Positions 15,987 through 27,266 of a DNA stretch of 64,000 nucleotides are shown here, one piece after another (position 1 is the stretch's first letter; every line of letters begins with the position of its first letter). A program made the translations under genes and the position numbers. The stretch is from Promethearchaeota archaeon (lineage in GTDB: Archaea > Asgardarchaeota > Hermodarchaeia > Hermodarchaeales > Hermodarchaeaceae), in the NCBI GenBank assembly GCA_048939625.1, contig JBHLPH010000006.1:1-64000 (forward strand), read 5' to 3'. A model generated the notes under the pieces. It was not told the DNA's origin and did no database searches. It saw nothing but the letters and a program-made list of their open reading frames with translations.

Positions 15987-16104
15987 TAGTGATCGAATGG
16001 AAGGAGACTCTGTGACACGGCTCTCTTTTGAGGTTCTGATCTTCTATCTCACCTATGTATTCTGATTACGATGACATTGGATAGTACTTTCCATACTGAT
16101 CACG

Positions 16105-16917
16105 TTAACGACGCTCCTCAGAAATGGCATGTCGGAGTGCTTGAACCGCTTGGGCTACCTCAACGTCCTGTTGAACCGCCTTAAGAAAGACTTCTTCGAG
16201 GGTGCCCTGGGCTTTCACGAGGTCTCGAAGTTCATCCACCGTCCCTTCAGCGACTAACCGTCCTTTATCAATAATCCCAATCCGTGTGCAGAGATGTTCA
16301 GCAATTTCCAAAATATGACTCGAAAACAAGATTGCTCCATTTCGTTCTAGATGGAGCTTTATGAACTCCTTCAACACACGAGCAGACCTTGCATCCAACC
16401 CAATAAGTGGTTCGTCAAGAACAAGCAGGGGGGGTTCATGGAGCAAAGCATTAATGACAGCCACCTTCTGTTTAGTTCCCAGACTCAATGCCGCAATAAC
16501 AGTATCATAGTGTTCCCGCATCTCAAAGACCGTAACTAATGATTGCACACGCTTCGTCGCAATATCTGATGGAAGGTCCCGCATCGAAGCGATAAAATCA
16601 AAGAACTCACGAGGAGTCAACGACTCATACAACATCTTTTCTTCAGGAACTAGCCCCACTGAATTCTTCACTTCAATCGGATTAACCGTCGGATCCAGCC
16701 CAAACACCCTCACCGATCCATCAGTCGGTGGGAGTAGACCACACACCATCCGTACTGTCGTGGTTTTCCCAGCCCCATTGGGCCCAAGAAGTCCATAAAT
16801 TTCACCACGCCGAACAGTAAAAGACAGTTGATCAACCGCCACCTTGGACCCGAATTTACGAACTAACCCATCAGCCATAATTGCCTTACTAGTAGAAATA
16901 TGCAATACCCATTCCAC
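16105..16917 (-). CDS. ABC transporter ATP-binding protein
   Basis: GPNGAGKTT Walker A, LSLGTKQ signature, LVLDEP Walker B, SSH switch. Confidence 0.95.
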   Translation of the reverse strand: MEWVLHISTSKAIMADGLVRKFGSKVAVDQLSFTVRRGEIYGLLGPNGAGKTTTVRMVCGLLPPTDGSVRVFGLDPTVNPIEVKNSVGLVPEEKMLYESLTPREFFDFIASMRDLPSDIATKRVQSLVTVFEMREHYDTVIAALSLGTKQKVAVINALLHEPPLLVLDEPLIGLDARSARVLKEFIKLHLERNGAILFSSHILEIAEHLCTRIGIIDKGRLVAEGTVDELRDLVKAQGTLEEVFLKAVQQDVEVAQAVQALRHAISEERR

Positions 16918-17170
16918 CCACTAATGCTAGAATTACCTACACGATATCCATCACATAGGTATAGAGTACAAACGTTCCCAACCATAAAGACATTCCTGTT
17001 CCCACCTCACAAATCAGCCTGTACTCTGGAGGCCTTCCAGGCGGTGCCAGGGACCAAATCACCATCAATCTACTTACCAGCCTCTACACCATCACACCCA
17101 CCCATCAGCAAAATAAGTCAAGACTGAACCCCGCTCCCACACCATAACACCTATAAACAAACCAAATTCG

Positions 17171-17234
17171 GAGCGCCACCCCCACAAAGTGTGGAGTTCT
17201 TTACTCCACCTCTACACACATTTCTGAGGCGCTC
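17171..17234. other. nested stem-loop immediately upstream of the LAGLIDADG ORF
   Basis: GAGCGCC(17171)/GGCGCTC(17228) outer stem and GTGGAGT-TCTTT-ACTCCAC inner stem. Confidence 0.5.
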
Positions 17235-17239
17235 TCCGC

Positions 17240-18841
17240 ATGCCACCATCCGACAACCCCCACGACCACACCCCCATCGATGTCTGGACCCCCACCATCA
17301 CTGGCACCCCCATCACCTCCATCCCCCACCTCCACCACATCCTCCAAACCGAGTACCCAGGCCTACAACGCAACCCCAACTACAAAGACTGGCTCCACGA
17401 CGCCGAAACCCACCTCACCCTCATCCACCACCTCAAAGGTCAAACCTACCTGGAAAGGGGTGACCGCCAACGCCTCGGTCACAAACTCGGCATCACCCGC
17501 CAAAAATTCACCGCCTGGGCCCAACACGCCCGCAAACCCCGCCTCTACTACGAACTGGACCGCATGCTCTCCAAAAACCACGCCCAAACACTCATCACCC
17601 AACTTCACAAAGAAAACAATACCATCCGTTCTACTGACGATGTAATTACTCGTCTTCATACTTACTATCTCACCCCACTTCATGAACAAAACAAACAACA
17701 CGAAAAACGGATCCAACAATGCACACTTTACTTCCAAGCCCTCGACTTACTCAAAGACGGCGGGGCCAACCTGGACGTCGCACGACAGCTTGGTATCCAC
17801 CATTCACAAGTCATGCACTGGCTTGACGGACGACGGCCGGATTATGTCGAACTCACACGTCATATTCCCATACAAGAACTCGAGCCTAACTGGAAATGGC
17901 TCCCCCTCAACCTCGAACGCGCATTCGTCCCCACACACTTCATCACCGTCCCTGATCACATCACTCACTATACAGAAATCAACAAAGTCCTCAACCAACT
18001 CTCCCCACTCGACACTAAAGCGATGCAAGAATGGGAAACCCGCTTCGGACCACCCAACCCCGAAGACGCCTTCTACTATCTCCTCGGCCTCATCGTCAGC
18101 GACTTCGACAAACAAAGCTCCCGTATCTCCTCCACAGAACTCGTCCTCACTCTTTCCAAAAACTATGACTGGAGTAAACAACTCGGTGACGCCGCCTGCT
18201 ATTACCTCGGACAACTTGGCATCCACGCCAAAAAAGTCAAAGACCGCGACTCATCAGCAGGACCCAAAATGTGTCACTCTTGGCGATCACAAAAAAGTCC
18301 TTTCAATACTTGGATTCTGATGTGTTGCCTTGGATTACAGAAAGGGCAATGCACGACCTATCATGCTGTCCATATGAGATGGATCCTTCAGGCTCCAGAT
18401 GAGTTAAGAAAAGCATATCTACAAGGCATGAGTGATGGAGACGGTTGGGCAAGTGTAAGGGACCAATGTATTGGTATCTATAGTGGACCTAATGTTAACC
18501 TTGTAAAAGACCTCCTCAAATTTCACGATATCGAAAGTGCAGATGATGGACAACGTGTCAGAATACGAACTCAGGAAGGAGTGATCAAAGCAGCTAAATT
18601 CCCTCTTTTCCGGTTTGCAACATCACGTCAAAAAACAGCAGAGAAAGTAGCACAAATGATGGAAACTCGTCAAAAACAAGAAATCGCAATAACACTTCCA
18701 GAAATCGTCAAAGAGATGAAACAGTTACGGGCGAAAGGGTATTCCTATGGAAAAATCGCTGAACACATTTTCGATAAATATGGGATCTCATACGACCATA
18801 GTGCAGTTATTCGTCTATTAAAGAAAAATAAAAACTACTAA
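17240..18841 (+). CDS. free-standing multi-HTH + double-motif LAGLIDADG endonuclease-like protein
   Basis: YYLLGLIVSDFD and KAYLQGMSDGDGW motifs; HTH-like LGHKLGITRQKFTAW, VARQLGIHHSQVMHW and KGYSYGKIAEHI; no intein termini. Confidence 0.75.
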   Translation: MPPSDNPHDHTPIDVWTPTITGTPITSIPHLHHILQTEYPGLQRNPNYKDWLHDAETHLTLIHHLKGQTYLERGDRQRLGHKLGITRQKFTAWAQHARKPRLYYELDRMLSKNHAQTLITQLHKENNTIRSTDDVITRLHTYYLTPLHEQNKQHEKRIQQCTLYFQALDLLKDGGANLDVARQLGIHHSQVMHWLDGRRPDYVELTRHIPIQELEPNWKWLPLNLERAFVPTHFITVPDHITHYTEINKVLNQLSPLDTKAMQEWETRFGPPNPEDAFYYLLGLIVSDFDKQSSRISSTELVLTLSKNYDWSKQLGDAACYYLGQLGIHAKKVKDRDSSAGPKMCHSWRSQKSPFNTWILMCCLGLQKGQCTTYHAVHMRWILQAPDELRKAYLQGMSDGDGWASVRDQCIGIYSGPNVNLVKDLLKFHDIESADDGQRVRIRTQEGVIKAAKFPLFRFATSRQKTAEKVAQMMETRQKQEIAITLPEIVKEMKQLRAKGYSYGKIAEHIFDKYGISYDHSAVIRLLKKNKNY

Positions 18842-18895
18842 AATGCCTTATTTCCCAATTTTAGGGCTTCTTATACCTTATTTTCAGCTAATCTC

Positions 18896-20659
18896 TTATC
18901 TCCCGCCCCCTGCGCACGCGCAAGCGCAACTTACGCAAGCACAAGCGCACGCGCATGAGCGTCCTGAGAAGGAGCTGCGTGCTGATGGGGGTGGTGGGGG
19001 GCGGAAGGCGGTGGCGATTTGGTTGGCGAGGTTCTGGAATCCGGTGACGACGGAGTTGGCGAAGTGTTGGGTGCCTAATACCGTTGCGTTGGCGAAGTTG
19101 GTGAGGGTGATGGGGGTGGTGGGGCGGATGGGGCCGGTGGGTAAGGTGGCGGCGGGGGTGAGGGTGTGGGGTCGGGGGTGGGCGGCCCAGAGCCACCACC
19201 AGTACCAGCCGGGGACGTAGTAGTGGTCGTAGGTTTTGATGCGGCGTTCGTAGTCGGGGGTGAGGAGGAGCCATTCGGCGTATTCGGTGAGGGCGCTGGC
19301 TTGGGCGGCGGGTGTGATGGCGAGGTCGATTTGGCGCCAGGCTTGGTCGATCATGCGGGTGTAGAAGACTTTGGTGTCGGTGCGGCTATACCCTTCGAGT
19401 TTGCGGGCGGTGGTTTTGATGAGGGTGTTGAGCATGGTGCGGATCTGGGTTTTATGGAGGTTGCCGGACGAGGTGATGGCTTTGAGGAAGAGGCGTTCAT
19501 AATAGTGCAGCCGGCCCTTGCTGCTGGCGGCTTGGGCGATTTCGCTGTGGTTAGGGTGGAAGGTGGGTTTGGCTTTGCCTTCCCGTTGAACCGATATGAG
19601 GTCTTTTTTCAGTAAGCCGAAGACAATCATGGTGAAGACGCGGTCGAGGGGGGTTTCGTTGAGGACGGCGGCTTCGACGACCGTAAGGCCGCGGCGGATC
19701 CCGAGGGCTTCAACTTTGACAGCTGGTGGAAGATAGCCCCGCTTGACGAGGCGGCGACCAGCTCTTGAGAGAACTGCACTTTTGACGACGCTGATGCAGC
19801 AGGCGCCAAAAATGACGATGAAGATTACAGCGTAGATGAGGAATTCACCGTATTCTTCTAAGAAGGCCCAGATGTCAATGCCAGTCGTGGTGCCACCGTC
19901 GGTATAGTAGGTGGTGATGTAGGCTTCGTCATAGGGGAAGCTAATGCCGTGGAGAATGCCTTGATAGTTTGATAAGCTCGTGTATTCCCAGGTGTAGACG
20001 AGGTTAGTATTGGTCCAGTAGTAGCGAGTAGGAACCGCATAATGATATTTGGCCAGTGTGCCGTTGTTGAATCCGTTGGGAAAATGCATGTGACAGCCGA
20101 GATAATCGGTGCCCCGGTTGTAGGCAGAGTCATACCAGGTAGGAGTGAACTCGTATCCAACATAACCGGGGGTGGCAGGATCGGTATCAAGGTAAACCAT
20201 ACGCTGTTGGATTCCCCAAACGAGGATAGTACCATTTTCACCACTTCCGGGTCGAAGAGCAAAAGGAATGAGGATTTGGATACCGATACTAATGACATCA
20301 GACGGTTCAATTGTTGTGAGTTCAATGTATGGGGCGCCTTCCAGGGACCAATAGGCCCGAAAACTGGAGAGCACATAGTAGGAATTGGGAAGACCAATGT
20401 CGATATAGGCGAAATCAGTACCATAATTTTCAAAGGTGATTGAATAATTGATGAGGACAGAGGCGTCCATTTGGGGAATAACGTGGACGGTCTCGTTCAT
20501 GACACGAAAATCATAGTTGAGGGGAAGCGTTCGATAAGAAGCTGAGCCAGATGGTATTGGGTCAGCGGGATGGACTCCCTGGGTGAGAAGAAGGGGGCTG
20601 GCAAAGGTAATGAAGAGACATATCATCAATGTGAGGGAAAAAAGTCGTATTCGTGTCAA
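18896..20659 (-). CDS. DUF2207-like membrane protein with Cys-rich C-terminal tail (SCACACACVSCACACAGGGR)
   Basis: Signal peptide, beta-rich ectodomain, TM, GLTVVEAAVL..MIVFGLLKKDLI and YYERLFL, Trp-rich segment, Cys tail. Confidence 0.8.
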   Translation of the reverse strand: MTRIRLFSLTLMICLFITFASPLLLTQGVHPADPIPSGSASYRTLPLNYDFRVMNETVHVIPQMDASVLINYSITFENYGTDFAYIDIGLPNSYYVLSSFRAYWSLEGAPYIELTTIEPSDVISIGIQILIPFALRPGSGENGTILVWGIQQRMVYLDTDPATPGYVGYEFTPTWYDSAYNRGTDYLGCHMHFPNGFNNGTLAKYHYAVPTRYYWTNTNLVYTWEYTSLSNYQGILHGISFPYDEAYITTYYTDGGTTTGIDIWAFLEEYGEFLIYAVIFIVIFGACCISVVKSAVLSRAGRRLVKRGYLPPAVKVEALGIRRGLTVVEAAVLNETPLDRVFTMIVFGLLKKDLISVQREGKAKPTFHPNHSEIAQAASSKGRLHYYERLFLKAITSSGNLHKTQIRTMLNTLIKTTARKLEGYSRTDTKVFYTRMIDQAWRQIDLAITPAAQASALTEYAEWLLLTPDYERRIKTYDHYYVPGWYWWWLWAAHPRPHTLTPAATLPTGPIRPTTPITLTNFANATVLGTQHFANSVVTGFQNLANQIATAFRPPPPPSARSSFSGRSCACACACVSCACACAGGGR

Positions 20660-20676
20660 GAGATGGGCACTTCCTT

Positions 20677-21066
20677 TTAGTGATCTTTCTCCTTGGTTGT
20701 TTGTTGGTGTATCTCGTTCAAGAGCTTTTGGGCGCGTTCCGAATCGGTTCCGATGAGCTCATCCAGAACACGTTCGTCAATTTCTTCATTGGTGGCTTCC
20801 AGAATAACGCGCCCCCAATACCCACAGTTGAGACAGCGGTATTTGGGGGGAGATATCCCCATAGCTCCTCCGATGTCATACCAGGTTTCCTGCCCACGGA
20901 TGTTAGGTGATTTACATTTGGGGCAAATCTTGAATTTAACCACTTTCCCCTCTTTTTTCAAGTCACCCAGTATCTGGTTGAGTCGTTTGATAATTTCCTC
21001 ACTCGATAATTCTTCAGAGGAGGAATAAGGTGAATCAGGAACCATCGGTGTGTTCAGCTCAATCAA
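20677..21066 (-). CDS. zinc-ribbon protein
   Basis: CPKCKS...YRCLNCGY. Confidence 0.75.
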   Translation of the reverse strand: MIELNTPMVPDSPYSSSEELSSEEIIKRLNQILGDLKKEGKVVKFKICPKCKSPNIRGQETWYDIGGAMGISPPKYRCLNCGYWGRVILEATNEEIDERVLDELIGTDSERAQKLLNEIHQQTTKEKDH

Positions 21067-21142
21067 GGTCCTCAGGGGAGAAGTGTGGAATTGTCTTAGG
21101 TTGGATTAGTAAAGCCAGGCTTTTTTTCTTTCCGTCTTGAGG

Positions 21143-21550
21143 TCACCATTTCACATCTTCAACGAGTTGTGAAACTTTGTTACAGTAGGGGCAGGTGAGG
21201 ACCACGGCACCAATGCGAGGGTCGTAGGCGAGGTGTTCTCGGCTTGGTGTGCCACCACAATTTGGACAGCTAACTTGACTGACGTCAAAGTCCCGTGGTA
21301 AATCGACTTGCGCTTGCACTACTATTCGTTCTGGTTGGCGTTGCCCGATATATCCAAGGATGATGGCAACAACGATCATAATTCCCGCTGCTCCAAAGAG
21401 CACAAGGGCCGTCATTTGGTTTGCAACAAGGTCCCCGACCGTGGCGATTAGAAACATGAGCCCAAGGAACCCTGATGCAATTGCGATGATTCCAAAGAGA
21501 ATTGCGATACAGGTGAGCGCTCTCATATGAGAGAGTGTGCTAGTTTTCAC
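21143..21550 (-). CDS. two-TM membrane protein with C-terminal zinc ribbon
   Basis: Two hydrophobic helices followed by CPNCGG...CPYC. Confidence 0.8.
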   Translation of the reverse strand: MKTSTLSHMRALTCIAILFGIIAIASGFLGLMFLIATVGDLVANQMTALVLFGAAGIMIVVAIILGYIGQRQPERIVVQAQVDLPRDFDVSQVSCPNCGGTPSREHLAYDPRIGAVVLTCPYCNKVSQLVEDVKW

Positions 21551-21683: not shown

Positions 21684-22361
21684 ATGGTTCGCCTGCAAGT
21701 CGCATTGGATTTTGAGAATCTTAATGATGCCCTGAAACTAGCGGAAAAGGTTGCACCCTATGTAGATATTATGGAGGTTGGCACACCATTAATTAAGGCA
21801 GAAGGAATTGGGGCGGTCAAAGCAATTAGTAGGGCCCACCCGGATAAGGCAATTTGTGCAGATCTTAAAACAGCTGATGCAGGGTATCTGGAGGTGCGAA
21901 TGGCAGCAAAAGCGTCTGCTAACTTGGTCACTGTGTTAGCTGATGCATATAATGAGACGCTACTTGGCGCACTGCGAGCAGCACACGAATTTGGCGTAGA
22001 GGTCATGGCAGATTTAATCGTCTCCCGTATTCCGATTAGTCGGCTTGCCGATATCCTCGGTTTATCATACAAAGGCACCAATATTCATTATGCCTGTGTT
22101 CATAGTGGCTTAGACCGACGGGCAGCCCGACGTGCCCCCCTGTCAGAATTGGATCAGGTTGCACGACTCCGTGGTCATCCCTGTCTAGCGGTAGCTGGCG
22201 GAATCCGTGTCGCTGACCTGCCAAAAATCTTAGCGTACCCAGTTGAGATAGTGATTGCAGGAGGAGGCATCACGAAGGCGAAGAACCCAGCTAAGGTGGC
22301 ACAATCATTTCAAAAGAAAATTCAAGCGCTTACAACGACTAAGGAGACCAAGGGCAGGTAG
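21684..22361 (+). CDS. hxlA: 3-hexulose-6-phosphate synthase (HPS/KGPDC family)
   Basis: LQVALD, EVGTPLIKAEG, DLKTADAG, VHSGLD, VAGGI. Confidence 0.85.
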   Translation: MVRLQVALDFENLNDALKLAEKVAPYVDIMEVGTPLIKAEGIGAVKAISRAHPDKAICADLKTADAGYLEVRMAAKASANLVTVLADAYNETLLGALRAAHEFGVEVMADLIVSRIPISRLADILGLSYKGTNIHYACVHSGLDRRAARRAPLSELDQVARLRGHPCLAVAGGIRVADLPKILAYPVEIVIAGGGITKAKNPAKVAQSFQKKIQALTTTKETKGR

Positions 22362-22369
22362 TTTTCAGT

Positions 22370-24115
22370 TCATTCAATTTCCTTATCAATCCAAGCAAAC
22401 TTCCGTTGGAGGGTTTTTGAGTAGTAGTCCTTCCAATCGTAATCGACTTGGCGACCCCAATCCCGATAAATGCGGGGATCAATATAGGATTTAAGGCTGG
22501 TTCCCAAATTCCACGTCCGTGTTTTCTTAGCGATATCCACCTGGGCTTTGAGTTTATCCTTGGCTTCTTTCGCTCTCGCAAGCCGCTCTTTCGCGACCTC
22601 TATACTCCTTCGTGCCGTTGCAATAGAAGAAGCATATGGACGATTCTTACCTCGAGGAATCGATTTGCCTTTGGCTTTTAGTTCGTCAAGTTTGGCAGTT
22701 TGCTTTACTTCCAGCTCTTTGAGACGCGCTTGTCGGGCTACAAGGTTTTCTTTCGATTTTTCAATTCGGTCCTTGGCTTTCTTTTGTCGTTCACGAAATC
22801 GTTGTAATCGTTTACTCCAGCCTTTAGGAACCTGTTTGGTGTGATTGCACACAATAGCAGCGTCGAGGTTCGCTTGCTTGGCTGCATTTTTCTTCACCCA
22901 ATTCGGATTGTCTGGTTTGACTTTGGAACGACCTAAGGAGGTCCTTACTGTGCTACTGGCATGAAAGGTTCGAAAGACCTTCGCGGTAAGCCCTGGCATT
23001 ATCTCCGAAAGGTAAGCATTAACATTTCGGCTCTTGACGTCAGGGAAAATTTGGGGTCGATCGCGGCTGGGATGGCTAGGTCCACGACGATTCGCCGTGT
23101 TTGGTACTCGGGCGTTCTCAATTAGAATTCGAAGTTGCTTGACGACTTCCGGTGGGAGTTTAATCGTTTTATGCCATGGCACTGAGTCTTTACCGAGAAA
23201 CTCGAACTCAACAACACCATCGTCTTTTATTATGACATGTTCTGGTCGCAACGTTGTCGCGCCAACTGTATCTGCTTCATCTGGGTCCTTTTCATCACCC
23301 ACACGAAGGCTGAGTACATCAATAAGATAGCACGCGGTGGCGATTTTTCGGCGTCGGGCTTTATTTGAATTCATGTCTTCCTGAATTGCCTGTCGGACGT
23401 TTTTGATGCGTTTTGATAGTTGTTGAGCAACCTCGAACTTCTGGGCTTCACGGTCCTGTTTGATAGAAGCCGTATCTGAGACCCAAACGTACTTGATTTT
23501 TCCAGAGAGTTTGTCCTCCCAGCGGGCAACCCAGAGACTATCGGATTGCCAAATGCGTCCTTTCCAGTTGCCTTCGGGCATAGGGACATCGGGGCTGAGA
23601 TTGAGCGTAATGTCTTTTTGCTGTGGACCAGGTTTCCATCGTCCCCTGAGAGGATGTTTGCCACGCCCCATGAAGATGCAGCTTGGTTCAGCGGTCCAAT
23701 TCGAGATTTCAACTTGTTCTCCGTCAATTTCCGCGTGTCCGTATCGTTCACGGAGGGCTTCACGAATTTCTTTCCGTTGTGCAGCTAGAGCTTTTCGTTC
23801 CTCCGTAGTCATGGCTTCTTTTTTCGCTTGTTCTCGCTCCCGCCGTTTAATGCCCACCCAAAATAAATCTTCTAAGTCAATTTCTTGAGGCTTCAAAACC
23901 GGTTTAATGCTGAGAGCTTTACTGAAATCTTTGAGAAAGTTGCGAACGAAGACCTGGTCTTCCCAGTAACCAAGATGCCGTTTGGCGACAAAAGCCATTG
24001 CCATTTGTTCTTGTTGGGCATCGAGTTCATAATCCGTGCCACGAATTGAAAGAACTAGACCTGTGGGTTCAGGAAGATCTGTGACACGGATACCATGGTG
24101 AACCAATCGTTTCAT
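22370..24115 (-). CDS. topIB: DNA topoisomerase IB (eukaryote-like)
   Basis: EPSCIFMGRGKHPLRG, LRVGDEK, FLGKDS, AKVFRT, CNH, coiled-coil linker, GTSLKSYIDPR with catalytic Tyr. Confidence 0.96.
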   Translation of the reverse strand: MKRLVHHGIRVTDLPEPTGLVLSIRGTDYELDAQQEQMAMAFVAKRHLGYWEDQVFVRNFLKDFSKALSIKPVLKPQEIDLEDLFWVGIKRREREQAKKEAMTTEERKALAAQRKEIREALRERYGHAEIDGEQVEISNWTAEPSCIFMGRGKHPLRGRWKPGPQQKDITLNLSPDVPMPEGNWKGRIWQSDSLWVARWEDKLSGKIKYVWVSDTASIKQDREAQKFEVAQQLSKRIKNVRQAIQEDMNSNKARRRKIATACYLIDVLSLRVGDEKDPDEADTVGATTLRPEHVIIKDDGVVEFEFLGKDSVPWHKTIKLPPEVVKQLRILIENARVPNTANRRGPSHPSRDRPQIFPDVKSRNVNAYLSEIMPGLTAKVFRTFHASSTVRTSLGRSKVKPDNPNWVKKNAAKQANLDAAIVCNHTKQVPKGWSKRLQRFRERQKKAKDRIEKSKENLVARQARLKELEVKQTAKLDELKAKGKSIPRGKNRPYASSIATARRSIEVAKERLARAKEAKDKLKAQVDIAKKTRTWNLGTSLKSYIDPRIYRDWGRQVDYDWKDYYSKTLQRKFAWIDKEIE

Positions 24116-24707: not shown

Positions 24708-27266
24708 TCACCCCGTGAGAATGAGGATAGATTCTACTCGAAATGAAAAGAGCAAGAGATCTTCAATATCAAAGTACATATAATCGATGTGATAATCGCC
24801 GACGAGGAAGAGCTGGAAAAGTTGGTCGCTGTAATGTCTGGAGAGAGGATTACCACTTTGGCCTCCAGGGATTACGCTGAGGGCATGCATCGGTTCATTT
24901 AGATTGACGATAAGGCGTTCGCTTGGACCACCTGATGCAGCACCTTGTTCACGAGCCCACATGTTCACACGAGATGGATTCACAGTGACTCCACTGCCAT
25001 CTGCAGGGATTGGGTCGTGCCCGAGAGCATCTCCCACCATGTGGGTGTAGACGACAAAGTGGAACTTATCCCAAGTCCATAGACTGACATCGGTTCCCTC
25101 TTCGTTAGTTAATCTGGTCATGGCAGCTTGGAATGACCGGACAATAATGTCGTCACGGGTTTCGGTGGTTCCGGTTGTAGTTACATCATCGAACCATGGT
25201 GAATTCGAATTAAACCGTGTGAGATTCTCTAAGATTATTGGGGATGGCCACAGGAGCCCTCCACGGTTAGAGGGGTATTCATCACCGAAGACATCCTCAA
25301 TATAGTAATCAAACCAGGCTCGCCAGATAGTCGGAGCTACCCATTCTTGGAGCATGGTAAAATTCCAAGTGCGTAGTAAATCGATTGCAGCCGAAAGGAT
25401 TGGGTCACTGGTTATTGAAGCAGCGGCATTATCAAAGGCGTCAATAAGGTAAGGAATTAAGGCTTCAGCAGCTGTATCCAAAACATCATTTTGTATACGC
25501 TTCATGTCATCAACGGTCACATCGGTATCGTTTTCGAGCATCTGAATAATTCGTCGTGCCCGGTACCCGGGAGCATATCCTTGATGAATATAATATGGAT
25601 ATGCCGATGGACCCTGCATGGCTGCTAGCTGATTAGCACTGACTACCCAGCCTCGATCAGGATTTAGCGAAAAGGGAAGCTCATCAAAGTCGACGTAATC
25701 AATCCATTCTCCTTCTCCTGCGGACCCATTGTGGGGGAGCCCACCATACCATTCAGCGCGAATCGGCCAATGCCCGGTGGGACGAATCGCTATGTTCCCT
25801 TCCACATCCGCAAATACGATATTCTGCGAGATAGTCCACCAGAATTTCTGTCCTTCAATGAATTCTGTGTAATTTCGTGCCATAGTCATTTTATCAAGTG
25901 CAATCAATTCGTAGCTTGGCTCACCGCCATTCCAGCGCTGAGCAATAACATGGTTATCGTAGCTAGTTCCGACATCAGACATGACTGGTCCGTGAACGGT
26001 ACGACGGATAGTGTGGTGATACGGTGCTTCACCTTTTACCGGAATGATAGTTGTTTCTTCCTCAAAGGTTTGCCATGCCCCATCGTACCAGTATTCATTC
26101 GAATTTGCGGGATTGATATTATAATAGTACCAGTCGATAACATCAGCAGCGACGTTGGTGAAGCCCCAGGCAACATACTCTGTATGTCCGGCAATGATGA
26201 GAGGAACCCCTGGGGGAACAAACCCATAGATATTCCGTCCTGTATCAGCTGCGACAAGATGGGCTTGATACCAGATGGAGGGCACATCCCGGGAAAGGTG
26301 CATGTCATTACATAGAATGGGTTTCGTTGTGGCGGATTTGGTGCTATTAACTGCCCAGTTATTGGAACCAATGAAATCACCTTGCCAACGGGTTAGAATA
26401 TTATCTGGGTCAGGAATGTTTTCCGTCCAGCTCAGGATACCAGAGATGGATTGTTGGAGTGACTCTGGAATGCTAGCGGAATTGATATCACAGGAAGGAG
26501 GGGGAATGTAACTAACACCATATTCAGGGACGACCGGCGTTTGGAGTGGGGGATTCAAGGGAAACAGTTCCCAAGCTGAGTCATTTCCCAGTTCTGCGAT
26601 TGTGTTCGCAAAGCGGAGATCAGAATCAGTCCAAGATAAGCCATAGTCGAGGATACGACCTACAGAGATGGAATCTAAAAGAGTCCATGGCTTTGGACGA
26701 TAATTCAGGAGCTTAAATTCCAATGGGAGATTTGATCCGAGGTTAGTGATATAGAAGTTCACGCCGTCAGCGAATGCTGAAAGATTTTCTCGGAGTGTTA
26801 TGTTATACTCATCTTGTTGAGCAAATACATGGTCAATGGTTTGTTGAGCAGCCCGCTCCATACCAAGGGTTCGGAGAAACCGATCCGCTGCAAGATAATT
26901 GGGACCAAGGATTTCTGCGAGTTGGCCTCGAGCTTGCCGGCGAGTGATATCCATTTGCCAAAGCCGATCTTGGGCTTGGACATATCCAAAGGCAAAAAAT
27001 AAATCTCGTTCGTTGGCAGCGTAGATATGAGGAATCCCCCAATCATCCCGAACGACTGTTACTGAGGCTGAAAGTCCAGGAATATGAACGGAGGCATAAG
27101 GGGGGTGCTCAGCATCTTGATACACTGTCCAAATACCTGTGAAGGGATCAATTAGACCACCGAGTGGTGGAATAATATCCAAGGGAACAATGAGAACAAC
27201 AGACATACTGACGACAAGTGCTACTGCGAGAGCAAGTTTTCCAATTTTTTTACCAGGTAAGGCCAT
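24708..27266 (-). CDS. penicillin acylase family Ntn-hydrolase (peptidase S45), exported
   Basis: RDDWGIPHIYA, GYVQAQDRLWQMD, GSNNWAV autocleavage site, NDMHL, PGGQSGNP.S.HY.DQ. Confidence 0.95.
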   Translation of the reverse strand: MALPGKKIGKLALAVALVVSMSVVLIVPLDIIPPLGGLIDPFTGIWTVYQDAEHPPYASVHIPGLSASVTVVRDDWGIPHIYAANERDLFFAFGYVQAQDRLWQMDITRRQARGQLAEILGPNYLAADRFLRTLGMERAAQQTIDHVFAQQDEYNITLRENLSAFADGVNFYITNLGSNLPLEFKLLNYRPKPWTLLDSISVGRILDYGLSWTDSDLRFANTIAELGNDSAWELFPLNPPLQTPVVPEYGVSYIPPPSCDINSASIPESLQQSISGILSWTENIPDPDNILTRWQGDFIGSNNWAVNSTKSATTKPILCNDMHLSRDVPSIWYQAHLVAADTGRNIYGFVPPGVPLIIAGHTEYVAWGFTNVAADVIDWYYYNINPANSNEYWYDGAWQTFEEETTIIPVKGEAPYHHTIRRTVHGPVMSDVGTSYDNHVIAQRWNGGEPSYELIALDKMTMARNYTEFIEGQKFWWTISQNIVFADVEGNIAIRPTGHWPIRAEWYGGLPHNGSAGEGEWIDYVDFDELPFSLNPDRGWVVSANQLAAMQGPSAYPYYIHQGYAPGYRARRIIQMLENDTDVTVDDMKRIQNDVLDTAAEALIPYLIDAFDNAAASITSDPILSAAIDLLRTWNFTMLQEWVAPTIWRAWFDYYIEDVFGDEYPSNRGGLLWPSPIILENLTRFNSNSPWFDDVTTTGTTETRDDIIVRSFQAAMTRLTNEEGTDVSLWTWDKFHFVVYTHMVGDALGHDPIPADGSGVTVNPSRVNMWAREQGAASGGPSERLIVNLNEPMHALSVIPGGQSGNPLSRHYSDQLFQLFLVGDYHIDYMYFDIEDLLLFSFRVESILILTG

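Follow-up and report, generated by a model that had tools for sequence, protein, structure and literature searches.

Why would a membrane protein end in a ladder of alternating cysteines? The question is raised by a locus of a Promethearchaeota archaeon (Asgardarchaeota, family Hermodarchaeaceae; assembly GCA_048939625.1), within the first 64,000 nucleotides of contig JBHLPH010000006.1; this whole stretch is hereafter called the window. An original prediction, made from the DNA alone, described three co-oriented genes here, coding for a Cys-tailed membrane protein and for two Zn-ribbon proteins, one with two transmembrane (TM) helices and one soluble. All three are present as open reading frames (ORFs) of the minus strand with the coordinates then given, and every motif quoted for them is found in the translations. 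The first codes for a protein of 587 residues that ends in SCACACACVSCACACAGGGR. Scans of the three proteins (587, 129, and 135 residues) against Pfam and NCBIfam give no family above cut-off, and a profile search of the PDB sequences with the alignment of the tail-protein family gives nothing at E up to 1. The family is large, its tail is nearly invariant, and its genes travel with genes of radical S-adenosylmethionine (SAM) enzymes carrying a SPASM domain. We propose, with moderate confidence, that the tail is cytoplasmic and is the substrate of such an enzyme, which would most likely turn it into a ladder of thioethers that is then methylated.

A Cys-Ala Tail Conserved across Bacteria and Archaea

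A word-indexed search with the 587-residue protein retrieves 44 homologues. The best matches come from metagenome-assembled genomes (MAGs) of Promethearchaeota and Hodarchaeota, and the bacterial ones have 25–33% identity. A profile search among 1.84 billion representatives finds 1393 clusters with an E-value no higher than 1e-3, of which 401 stay at or below 1e-30. In a scan with one genome per species, the family is present in at least 331 genomes, mostly of Anaerolineae and other Chloroflexota, and also of Acidobacteriota, δ-proteobacteria, Zixibacteria, Cloacimonadota, and Bathyarchaeota. The carriers include the cultured Bellilinea caldifistulae, in which the system can be tested in culture, as well as MAGs labelled Anaerolinea thermophila and Herpetosiphon.

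Full-length homologues spanning 25% to 90% identity share the same ending, a Cys-Ala repeat followed by GGG and then by R, VG, or AG. The tail, for which a pattern search was proposed with the original prediction, is kept in essentially every full-length member. The six residues that precede GGG are CACACA in 258–259 of the 259 distinct members, and the Ala positions are as invariant as the Cys positions, the selection of the 259 sequences having fixed the latter and left the former free. Such conservation exceeds that of most active sites. The number of Cys ranges from 3 to 10 in these members, and one representative tail has only two.

Between the gene of the window and that of a relative with 66% identity, the tail peptide is identical while at least eight codons show synonymous differences. 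Selection therefore acts on the peptide and not on a DNA repeat, and the view of the tail as a microsatellite artefact can be discarded. Two members that apparently lack the tail are frameshifted gene calls, in which the tail is encoded by the following ORF, in the next frame (L112:5680-5895 and L114:1497-1787), and the radical SAM gene is adjacent. The contig of a third spans 1.8 kb, too little for a judgement. The genome under study has a single tail gene and one occurrence of the motif.

Co-Occurrence with Radical SAM/SPASM Enzymes

Linkage was counted by scoring all the ORFs of the loci of 80 GTDB species with hidden Markov models built from the genes concerned, the denominators being the loci that could be judged. 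In 67 of 71 loci, the gene directly downstream of the tail gene codes for a radical SAM/SPASM enzyme, 62 times with the motif CX3CX2C. A second, cluster-less radical SAM paralog, devoid of this motif, is found in 37 of 61, and a class-I SAM methyltransferase within 6 kb of the tail gene in 41 of 61. Among the roles that the original prediction offered for the tail, post-translational modification is the one that best fits this linkage and the presence of an ortholog of the enzyme in the genome under study. Lipidation, also offered, finds no support, since the cassette neighborhoods show no conserved acyl- or prenyl-transferase.

No radical SAM gene is found in the vicinity of the tail locus in the window, and the enzyme had been missed by the original prediction because its gene lies outside this stretch. 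The genome has one strong ortholog (G000:C23:7712-9040, minus strand), with 57% identity to another archaeal copy (E 4e-173). It contains the motif CNNTCSHC, Radical_SAM and SPASM domains, and an N-terminal extension of 120 residues, and its gene is directly followed by that of a methyltransferase (G000:C23:6956-7672, minus strand). Among 41 Asgard genomes, the enzyme accompanies the tail gene in all 12 that carry the latter, and the 19 that lack the enzyme also lack the tail. Within the window's own family, every one of the 19 genomes has the enzyme, and 11 have the three-gene locus, which is always collinear. Hence, an enzyme with CX3CX2C and SPASM is inherited along with a Cys-bearing tail gene, which is how a maturation system would be recognized.

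The arrangement of these genes varies among Asgard lineages. In one genome of the same genus, a 3′ piece of the tail gene and the enzyme gene share a contig at a distance of 40 kb. A different Asgard family has the genes for the tail protein, the enzyme, and the methyltransferase contiguous and in this order, without the Zn-ribbon gene. Since the cassette is contiguous there, whereas here the enzyme is on another contig and there is an extra gene, the window's lineage has split the ancestral cassette and inserted a gene.

When compared with NCBIfam, the family's enzymes match best PqqE, NirJ2, GeoRSP, MftC, StsB, SkfB, and AlbA, which are maturases of peptides or cofactors. None of these curated families is reached, the best scores being of 140–150 bits for cut-offs of 265–850.

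A Constant Membrane Partner and a Lineage-Specific Neighbor

The two Zn-ribbon genes had both been regarded as partners of the tail gene; they are not equivalent. In the neighborhoods of distant homologues there is a small gene that overlaps the start of the tail gene, and its product aligns with the 2-TM protein, not with the soluble one. In 71 of 74 judgeable loci, the gene immediately upstream of the tail gene codes for the 2-TM protein. The neighborhood analysis that had been suggested for it therefore bears out its linkage, which is as tight as that of the enzyme gene, and the 2-TM protein is the family-wide partner of the tail protein. In an alignment of 30 sequences of this protein, C95, C98, C120, C123, E131, and W135 are invariant, as is the C-terminal ...E.(P/V)KW. 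The Pfam family DUF7559 (PF24440) matches it with 25.1 bits, under the cut-off of 27, and only over 21 residues around one Cys knuckle.

The soluble protein has a different distribution. Its gene is inserted between those of the partner and of the tail protein in this archaeal family alone (11 loci found, all collinear), and it is missing from the bacterial cassettes examined. It shows no homology to the 2-TM protein, and the possibility that it arose as a duplicate of the partner's ribbon was rejected (hhalign probability of 5%). The soluble Zn-ribbon gene is thus a lineage-specific, later addition.

A second 2-TM Zn-ribbon-like ORF, weakly related to the partner, is found elsewhere in the genome (G000:C53:56476-56808, E ~1e-5 to the 2-TM alignment). 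Similar ORFs of ~132 residues recur in genomes of the same genus, away from the tail locus.

A Divergent Branch of DUF2207

The original prediction likened the tail to those of DUF2207-like proteins. The Pfam models of DUF2207 (PF09972 and PF20990) do not match the 587-residue protein at E up to 1, and a search of the whole genome with PF20990 gives no match, the tail gene included. Remote homology is nevertheless found when the alignment of the tail family is compared by hhalign with two Asgard proteins that pass PF20990 (probability of 98.4%, E 4.4e-15), over 289 columns that span the external domain, the TM helix, and the start of the winged helix. The likeness therefore stands at the level of distant homology, not at that of the Pfam models. 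Together with the identical order of the parts, it places the tail family as a divergent branch of DUF2207. Both groups also have an aromatic patch at the same place (YWPYWWYYHH in one true DUF2207 protein), Phe-spaced helices, and a terminal tail of low complexity.

There are also differences. The canonical tail is (Gly/Ala)n, whereas that of the tail family is (Cys-Ala)n-GGGR. True members of DUF2207_C show extra hydrophobic stretches, whereas the tail protein has only two hydrophobic segments and no extra TM helices. Finally, radical SAM genes accompany the tail-family gene. In this branch, a Gly/Ala tail became a Cys/Ala tail and radical SAM genes were recruited. The homology ties the tail system to one of the commonest families of membrane proteins of unknown function; we know of no function assigned to DUF2207 itself. 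It further suggests a function for the peculiar low-complexity tails found in that family.

The canonical proteins, from other Asgard genomes (L100:1171-3012 and L101:1177-3069, both on the minus strand) have long (Gly/Ala)n tails in the position of the Cys-Ala tail, one of which contains a strictly alternating GAGAGAGAG run.

Architecture of the Tail Protein

The protein had been described as single-pass with a large ectodomain. One crossing after the N-terminal segment is indeed found, as hydropathy shows only two hydrophobic segments, residues 1–29 and 270–298; the proportions have to be refined. The TM helix is followed by a strongly basic KSAVLSRAGRRLVKRG, so by the positive-inside rule the C-terminal part should be cytoplasmic. 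The predicted topology thus consists of a signal peptide or anchor, ~240 residues outside, one TM helix, and ~290 residues inside, tail included. The protein belongs to the DUF2207 superfamily and would be a type-I membrane protein.

The structure model of the whole protein has a mean pLDDT (predicted local distance difference test score) of 72 and an unstructured tail. Its external β-sandwich domain, with pLDDT ~90, matches the N-terminal domain of M1 aminopeptidases and ribophorin I in Foldseek (E ~2e-6), aligns with the N-terminal region of DUF2207 in hhalign, and contains four N-x-S/T sequons. Just inside the membrane is the best-conserved internal motif, YLPPAV.VE.LGIRRGLT..EAA.L, in which Y309, E317, R323, G324, L325, A330, and L333 are invariant columns. 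It is partly disordered in the model (pLDDT <50 for residues 297–319) and is possibly a docking site.

The cytoplasmic domain that follows was also folded alone (pLDDT 84, predicted TM-score 0.79). It has no Foldseek match below 1e-3. VIA-align pairs it with GOLPH3 (3kn1_A; Z 7.3, root mean square deviation 4.4, 157 residues aligned) and with Vps74 (2zih_A; Z 6.8), over 151–157 of 198 residues, the next match having Z 5.1 over 59 residues; as Z values under 8 can reflect a common arrangement of helices, the likeness is only suggestive. There is no Pfam match of the 587-residue protein with the family of GOLPH3 and Vps74 (GPP34). At the end of this domain, the aromatic patch YYVPGWYWWWLW has an invariant P483 and a nearly invariant W485 in the family alignment; it is too short for a TM helix and probably sits at the membrane interface. 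A flexible linker rich in Pro, His, and Thr connects it to the tail.

A Proposed Maturation of the Tail

In the proposed mechanism, the tail faces the cytoplasm, where it is acted on by its own radical SAM/SPASM enzyme and by a class-I SAM methyltransferase. Thioether cross-links would run from the alternating Cys to the alternating Ala or to the terminal Gly residues, giving a rigid hairpin ladder like the product of StsB on StsA, and methylation would come afterwards. The 2-TM Zn-ribbon protein would be the constant membrane partner and may hold or present the tail, presumably in physical contact with it. The tail is favored as the substrate because its predicted location is the compartment where radical SAM enzymes work, because its Ala positions are invariant, and because the methyltransferase and the cluster-less paralog travel with the pair of tail and enzyme genes.

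Nearly all known radical SAM/SPASM enzymes produce small modified peptides, and to our knowledge very few act on whole proteins, namely, QhpD, the sulfatase maturases, and CrpC. If the proposal is true, the system would provide a membrane-protein example of this kind of modification, spread across many anaerobic bacterial phyla and archaea, and an undescribed chemical modification of the tail of a whole membrane protein. A literature search found no paper containing the strings CACACAGGGR or CACAGGGR, none describing a Cys-Ala repeat tail, and, for queries on DUF2207 or radical SAM, no DUF2207 paper among the top-ranked matches.

One may go further and see a widespread maturation system in which the enzyme, its cluster-less paralog, and the methyltransferase turn (Cys-Ala)n-GGGR into a cross-linked, methylated, and membrane-tethered structure with its 2-TM partner, akin to RiPPs (peptides made on the ribosome and modified after translation), the tail being the working end in the whole DUF2207 superfamily. 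This larger view is more tentative, and we put it at somewhat below even. If true, it would give the first handle on the role of these very common proteins.

Several observations weigh against the modification of the tail. The 80 loci are mostly from Chloroflexota and are not independent, even though they include several phyla and both domains. In the genome under study, the enzyme and the tail gene are unlinked, being on different contigs. Among the 19 MAGs of the same family that have the enzyme, eight have no detected tail locus. Five of these eight were checked, and in each the topoisomerase gene next to the locus is absent too or is interrupted by the end of a contig; loss of the tail locus was therefore discarded for these five, which reflect assembly gaps and not demonstrated loss. 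A PqqD-type recognition domain is not found in this genome's enzyme at E up to 0.01, and a PqqD match is found only for one paralog, in L002 (E 1e-4; 23.1 bits for a cut-off of 23.4). No leader peptide, protease, or exporter or other transporter is conserved in the cassette. For this reason the tail system is not a classical RiPP, and its Cys core is the end of a 587-residue membrane protein, not a short leader-bearing precursor. Finally, CxCxC is a classic metal-binding motif, and for every member of the family the modification is a prediction.

Comparison with Known Systems

The closest parallels are systems in which a SPASM enzyme acts on Cys-rich substrates. StsB, from Streptomyces sparsogenes, links Cys2, Cys4, and Cys6 of StsA to Gly11, Gly13, and Gly15, giving a hairpin (PMC10288494). 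The StsA/StsB(/StsC) and BlaA/BlaB systems (PMC10288494) share with the tail system a core of alternating Cys and a SPASM enzyme, and StsA also has alternating small residues. The family's enzymes match the StsB model (NF045574) over nearly their full length, with 109 bits for a cut-off of 625. StsA is a short peptide made of leader and core, whereas here the core ends a 587-residue membrane protein and the acceptors would be Ala or the terminal GGG.

In Methanococcus voltae, the radical SAM/SPASM enzyme CrpC was found in 2026 to put thioethers on a whole Cys-rich protein, CrpA (PMC13692751). This is also an archaeal SPASM enzyme with a whole protein as substrate, and the Cys of CrpA are in a C-terminal repeat. 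CrpA is, however, soluble, of ~29 kDa, with ten 17-residue repeats containing C-x-x-Q/D, whereas here the substrate would be a membrane protein with a Cys-Ala repeat of period 2. The tail system further differs by its 2-TM Zn-ribbon partner and its methyltransferase, and the CrpC family (TIGR04463) is not among the best 25 NCBIfam families for the tail-family enzymes.

QhpD forms Cys thioethers within a whole protein subunit, QhpC. Like it, the SPASM enzymes of SCIFF/CteB and of other ranthipeptide or sactipeptide systems form Cys thioethers; in all of these the substrate families and the spacing of Cys are different, the substrates are not membrane proteins, and the family cut-offs are not reached by the enzymes studied here. 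Haft's ACGX-repeat system pairs a radical SAM/SPASM enzyme (TIGR04340) with a short-period Cys/Ala/Gly repeat. Its period is 4 instead of 2, its substrates are small peptides, and the score with TIGR04340 is ~70–74 bits for a cut-off of 400.

Alternative Roles for the Tail

The main rival takes the tail as an unmodified metal or Fe-S site. Cu, Zn, Fe, or a cluster would be bound by the alternating Cys on one face of a β-hairpin, perhaps in pairs from two copies, and the enzyme would be linked for another reason, e.g., because the tail gives it, or shares with it, a cluster or sulfur. In favor of this, metals are typically bound by CxCxC repeats, both neighboring genes code for Zn-ribbon proteins, and the modification is so far inferred. 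In metallothionein CxC sites, x varies, unlike in the tail, where it is Ala in all or all but one of the 259 sequences; an Ala as invariant as Cys is not needed for a simple thiolate site. The variable number of Cys, down to two in one tail, is hard to reconcile with one defined cluster. The methyltransferase and the cluster-less paralog that accompany the pair also speak against this site, as does the absence of any metal transporter or chaperone from the cassette neighborhoods, and we consider it less likely than modification, though a serious rival. The open iron of a SPASM auxiliary cluster can bind a substrate Cys, as discussed for CrpC (PMC13692751), which counts in favor of a metal-binding tail.

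Such an open iron would also serve if the tail were a tether that docks the enzyme at the membrane, the enzyme and the methyltransferase then modifying another substrate, such as a lipid, a small molecule, or a protein. This would agree with the enzyme gene lying far from the tail gene in some genomes, with the moderate structural match of the modelled cytoplasmic domain to GOLPH3 and Vps74, which recruit enzymes to membranes, and with the canonical Gly/Ala tails of DUF2207, which hold no modifiable Cys. It is improbable, in that the cassette has no conserved gene for an alternative substrate, an end kept so strictly as CACACAGGGR better suits the substrate of an active site, and the characterized relatives of the enzyme act on Cys-containing peptides (PMC10288494, PMC13692751). 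Slightly more improbable still is that the three genes of the window form by themselves a transmembrane sensing or stress module, as the original prediction had read from their architecture, with Cys-rich redox or metal sensors and no need of the enzyme. All 11 loci found in this archaeal family preserve their order, and an external domain with a cytoplasmic winged-helix-like domain, as modelled, is suggestive of a receptor. The Pfam and NCBIfam scans give no kinase, cyclase, DNA-binding output, or other signalling domain; furthermore, the middle gene is missing outside this archaeal family, and the enzyme genes are within the operon outside this lineage.

Features of the Locus and Its Surroundings

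Coordinates of the three genes, of the parts of the tail protein, and of the flanking genes are given in Table 1.

Table 1. Features of the tail locus and its flanks (positions in the window)
Feature	Positions	Strand	Basis and remarks
587-residue Cys-Ala-tailed membrane protein	18896..20659	-	ORF; no Pfam or NCBIfam family name
Predicted N-terminal signal peptide or signal anchor, residues 1-29	20573..20659	-	Hydropathy; helix 5-25 in model
Predicted external β-sandwich domain, residues ~50-245	19925..20512	-	Structure model, Foldseek, DUF2207 alignment
Predicted single TM helix, residues 270-298, then basic stretch	19766..19852	-	Hydropathy
Best-conserved internal motif YLPPAV.VE.LGIRRGLT..EAA.L, residues 309-333	19661..19735	-	Tail-family alignment
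Predicted cytoplasmic winged-helix-like start and helical bundle, residues ~324-493	19181..19690	-	Model of the domain alone
Aromatic patch, residues 480-491	19187..19222	-	ORF translation, alignment
Terminal tail, residues 568-587	18899..18958	-	7 Cys; stop codon 18896-18898
Soluble Zn-ribbon protein, 129 residues	20677..21066	-	CPKC...CLNC; ORF between two conserved genes
2-TM protein with predicted cytoplasmic C4 Zn-ribbon, 135 residues	21143..21550	-	Two hydrophobic helices, CPNC...CPYC, ends VEDVKW
533-residue ORF, probable homing endonuclease	17240-18841	+	
OMP-decarboxylase/HUMPS-family protein	21684-22361	+	
Eukaryote-type topoisomerase IB, complete	22370-24115	-	Topoisom_I_N, Topoisom_I, Topo_C_assoc; E 6e-67
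Penicillin-amidase family protein	24708-27266	-	E 3e-200

Among the flanking genes, those of the penicillin-amidase and OMP-decarboxylase/HUMPS families show no sign of a functional link to the tail locus. The topoisomerase IB is syntenic with the tail locus in a Hodarchaeota relative.

The 533-residue ORF adjoins the tail gene at its 3′ end. Its N-terminal region resembles a helix-turn-helix (HTH), and it has two LAGLIDADG-like motifs (LLGLIVSDFDK and YLQGMSDGDGW), on account of which it probably codes for a homing endonuclease of the free-standing kind; the only Pfam match is a weak one to HTH_23. In a Hodarchaeota relative, a counterpart of 531 residues with a faint match to LAGLIDADG_3 is found near the tail gene, and L112 has an HNH endonuclease gene that sits after the radical SAM gene and just upstream of that of the tail protein. 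The GC skew of the window flips sharply from -0.34 (16–18 kb) to +0.17 (18–20 kb), with its center at the endonuclease gene and the tail gene's 3′ end, and the Pro/His/Thr-rich linker that precedes the tail falls in this biased zone (16001–20000). Four MAGs of the same genus (G005, G010, G012, and G014) have a tail gene that either continues on a second contig or stops at a contig end. The interruption always falls near residues 460–505, in the zone of the aromatic patch and Pro-rich linker beside the endonuclease site; assemblies break here repeatedly, and the site may be one of polymorphic insertion.

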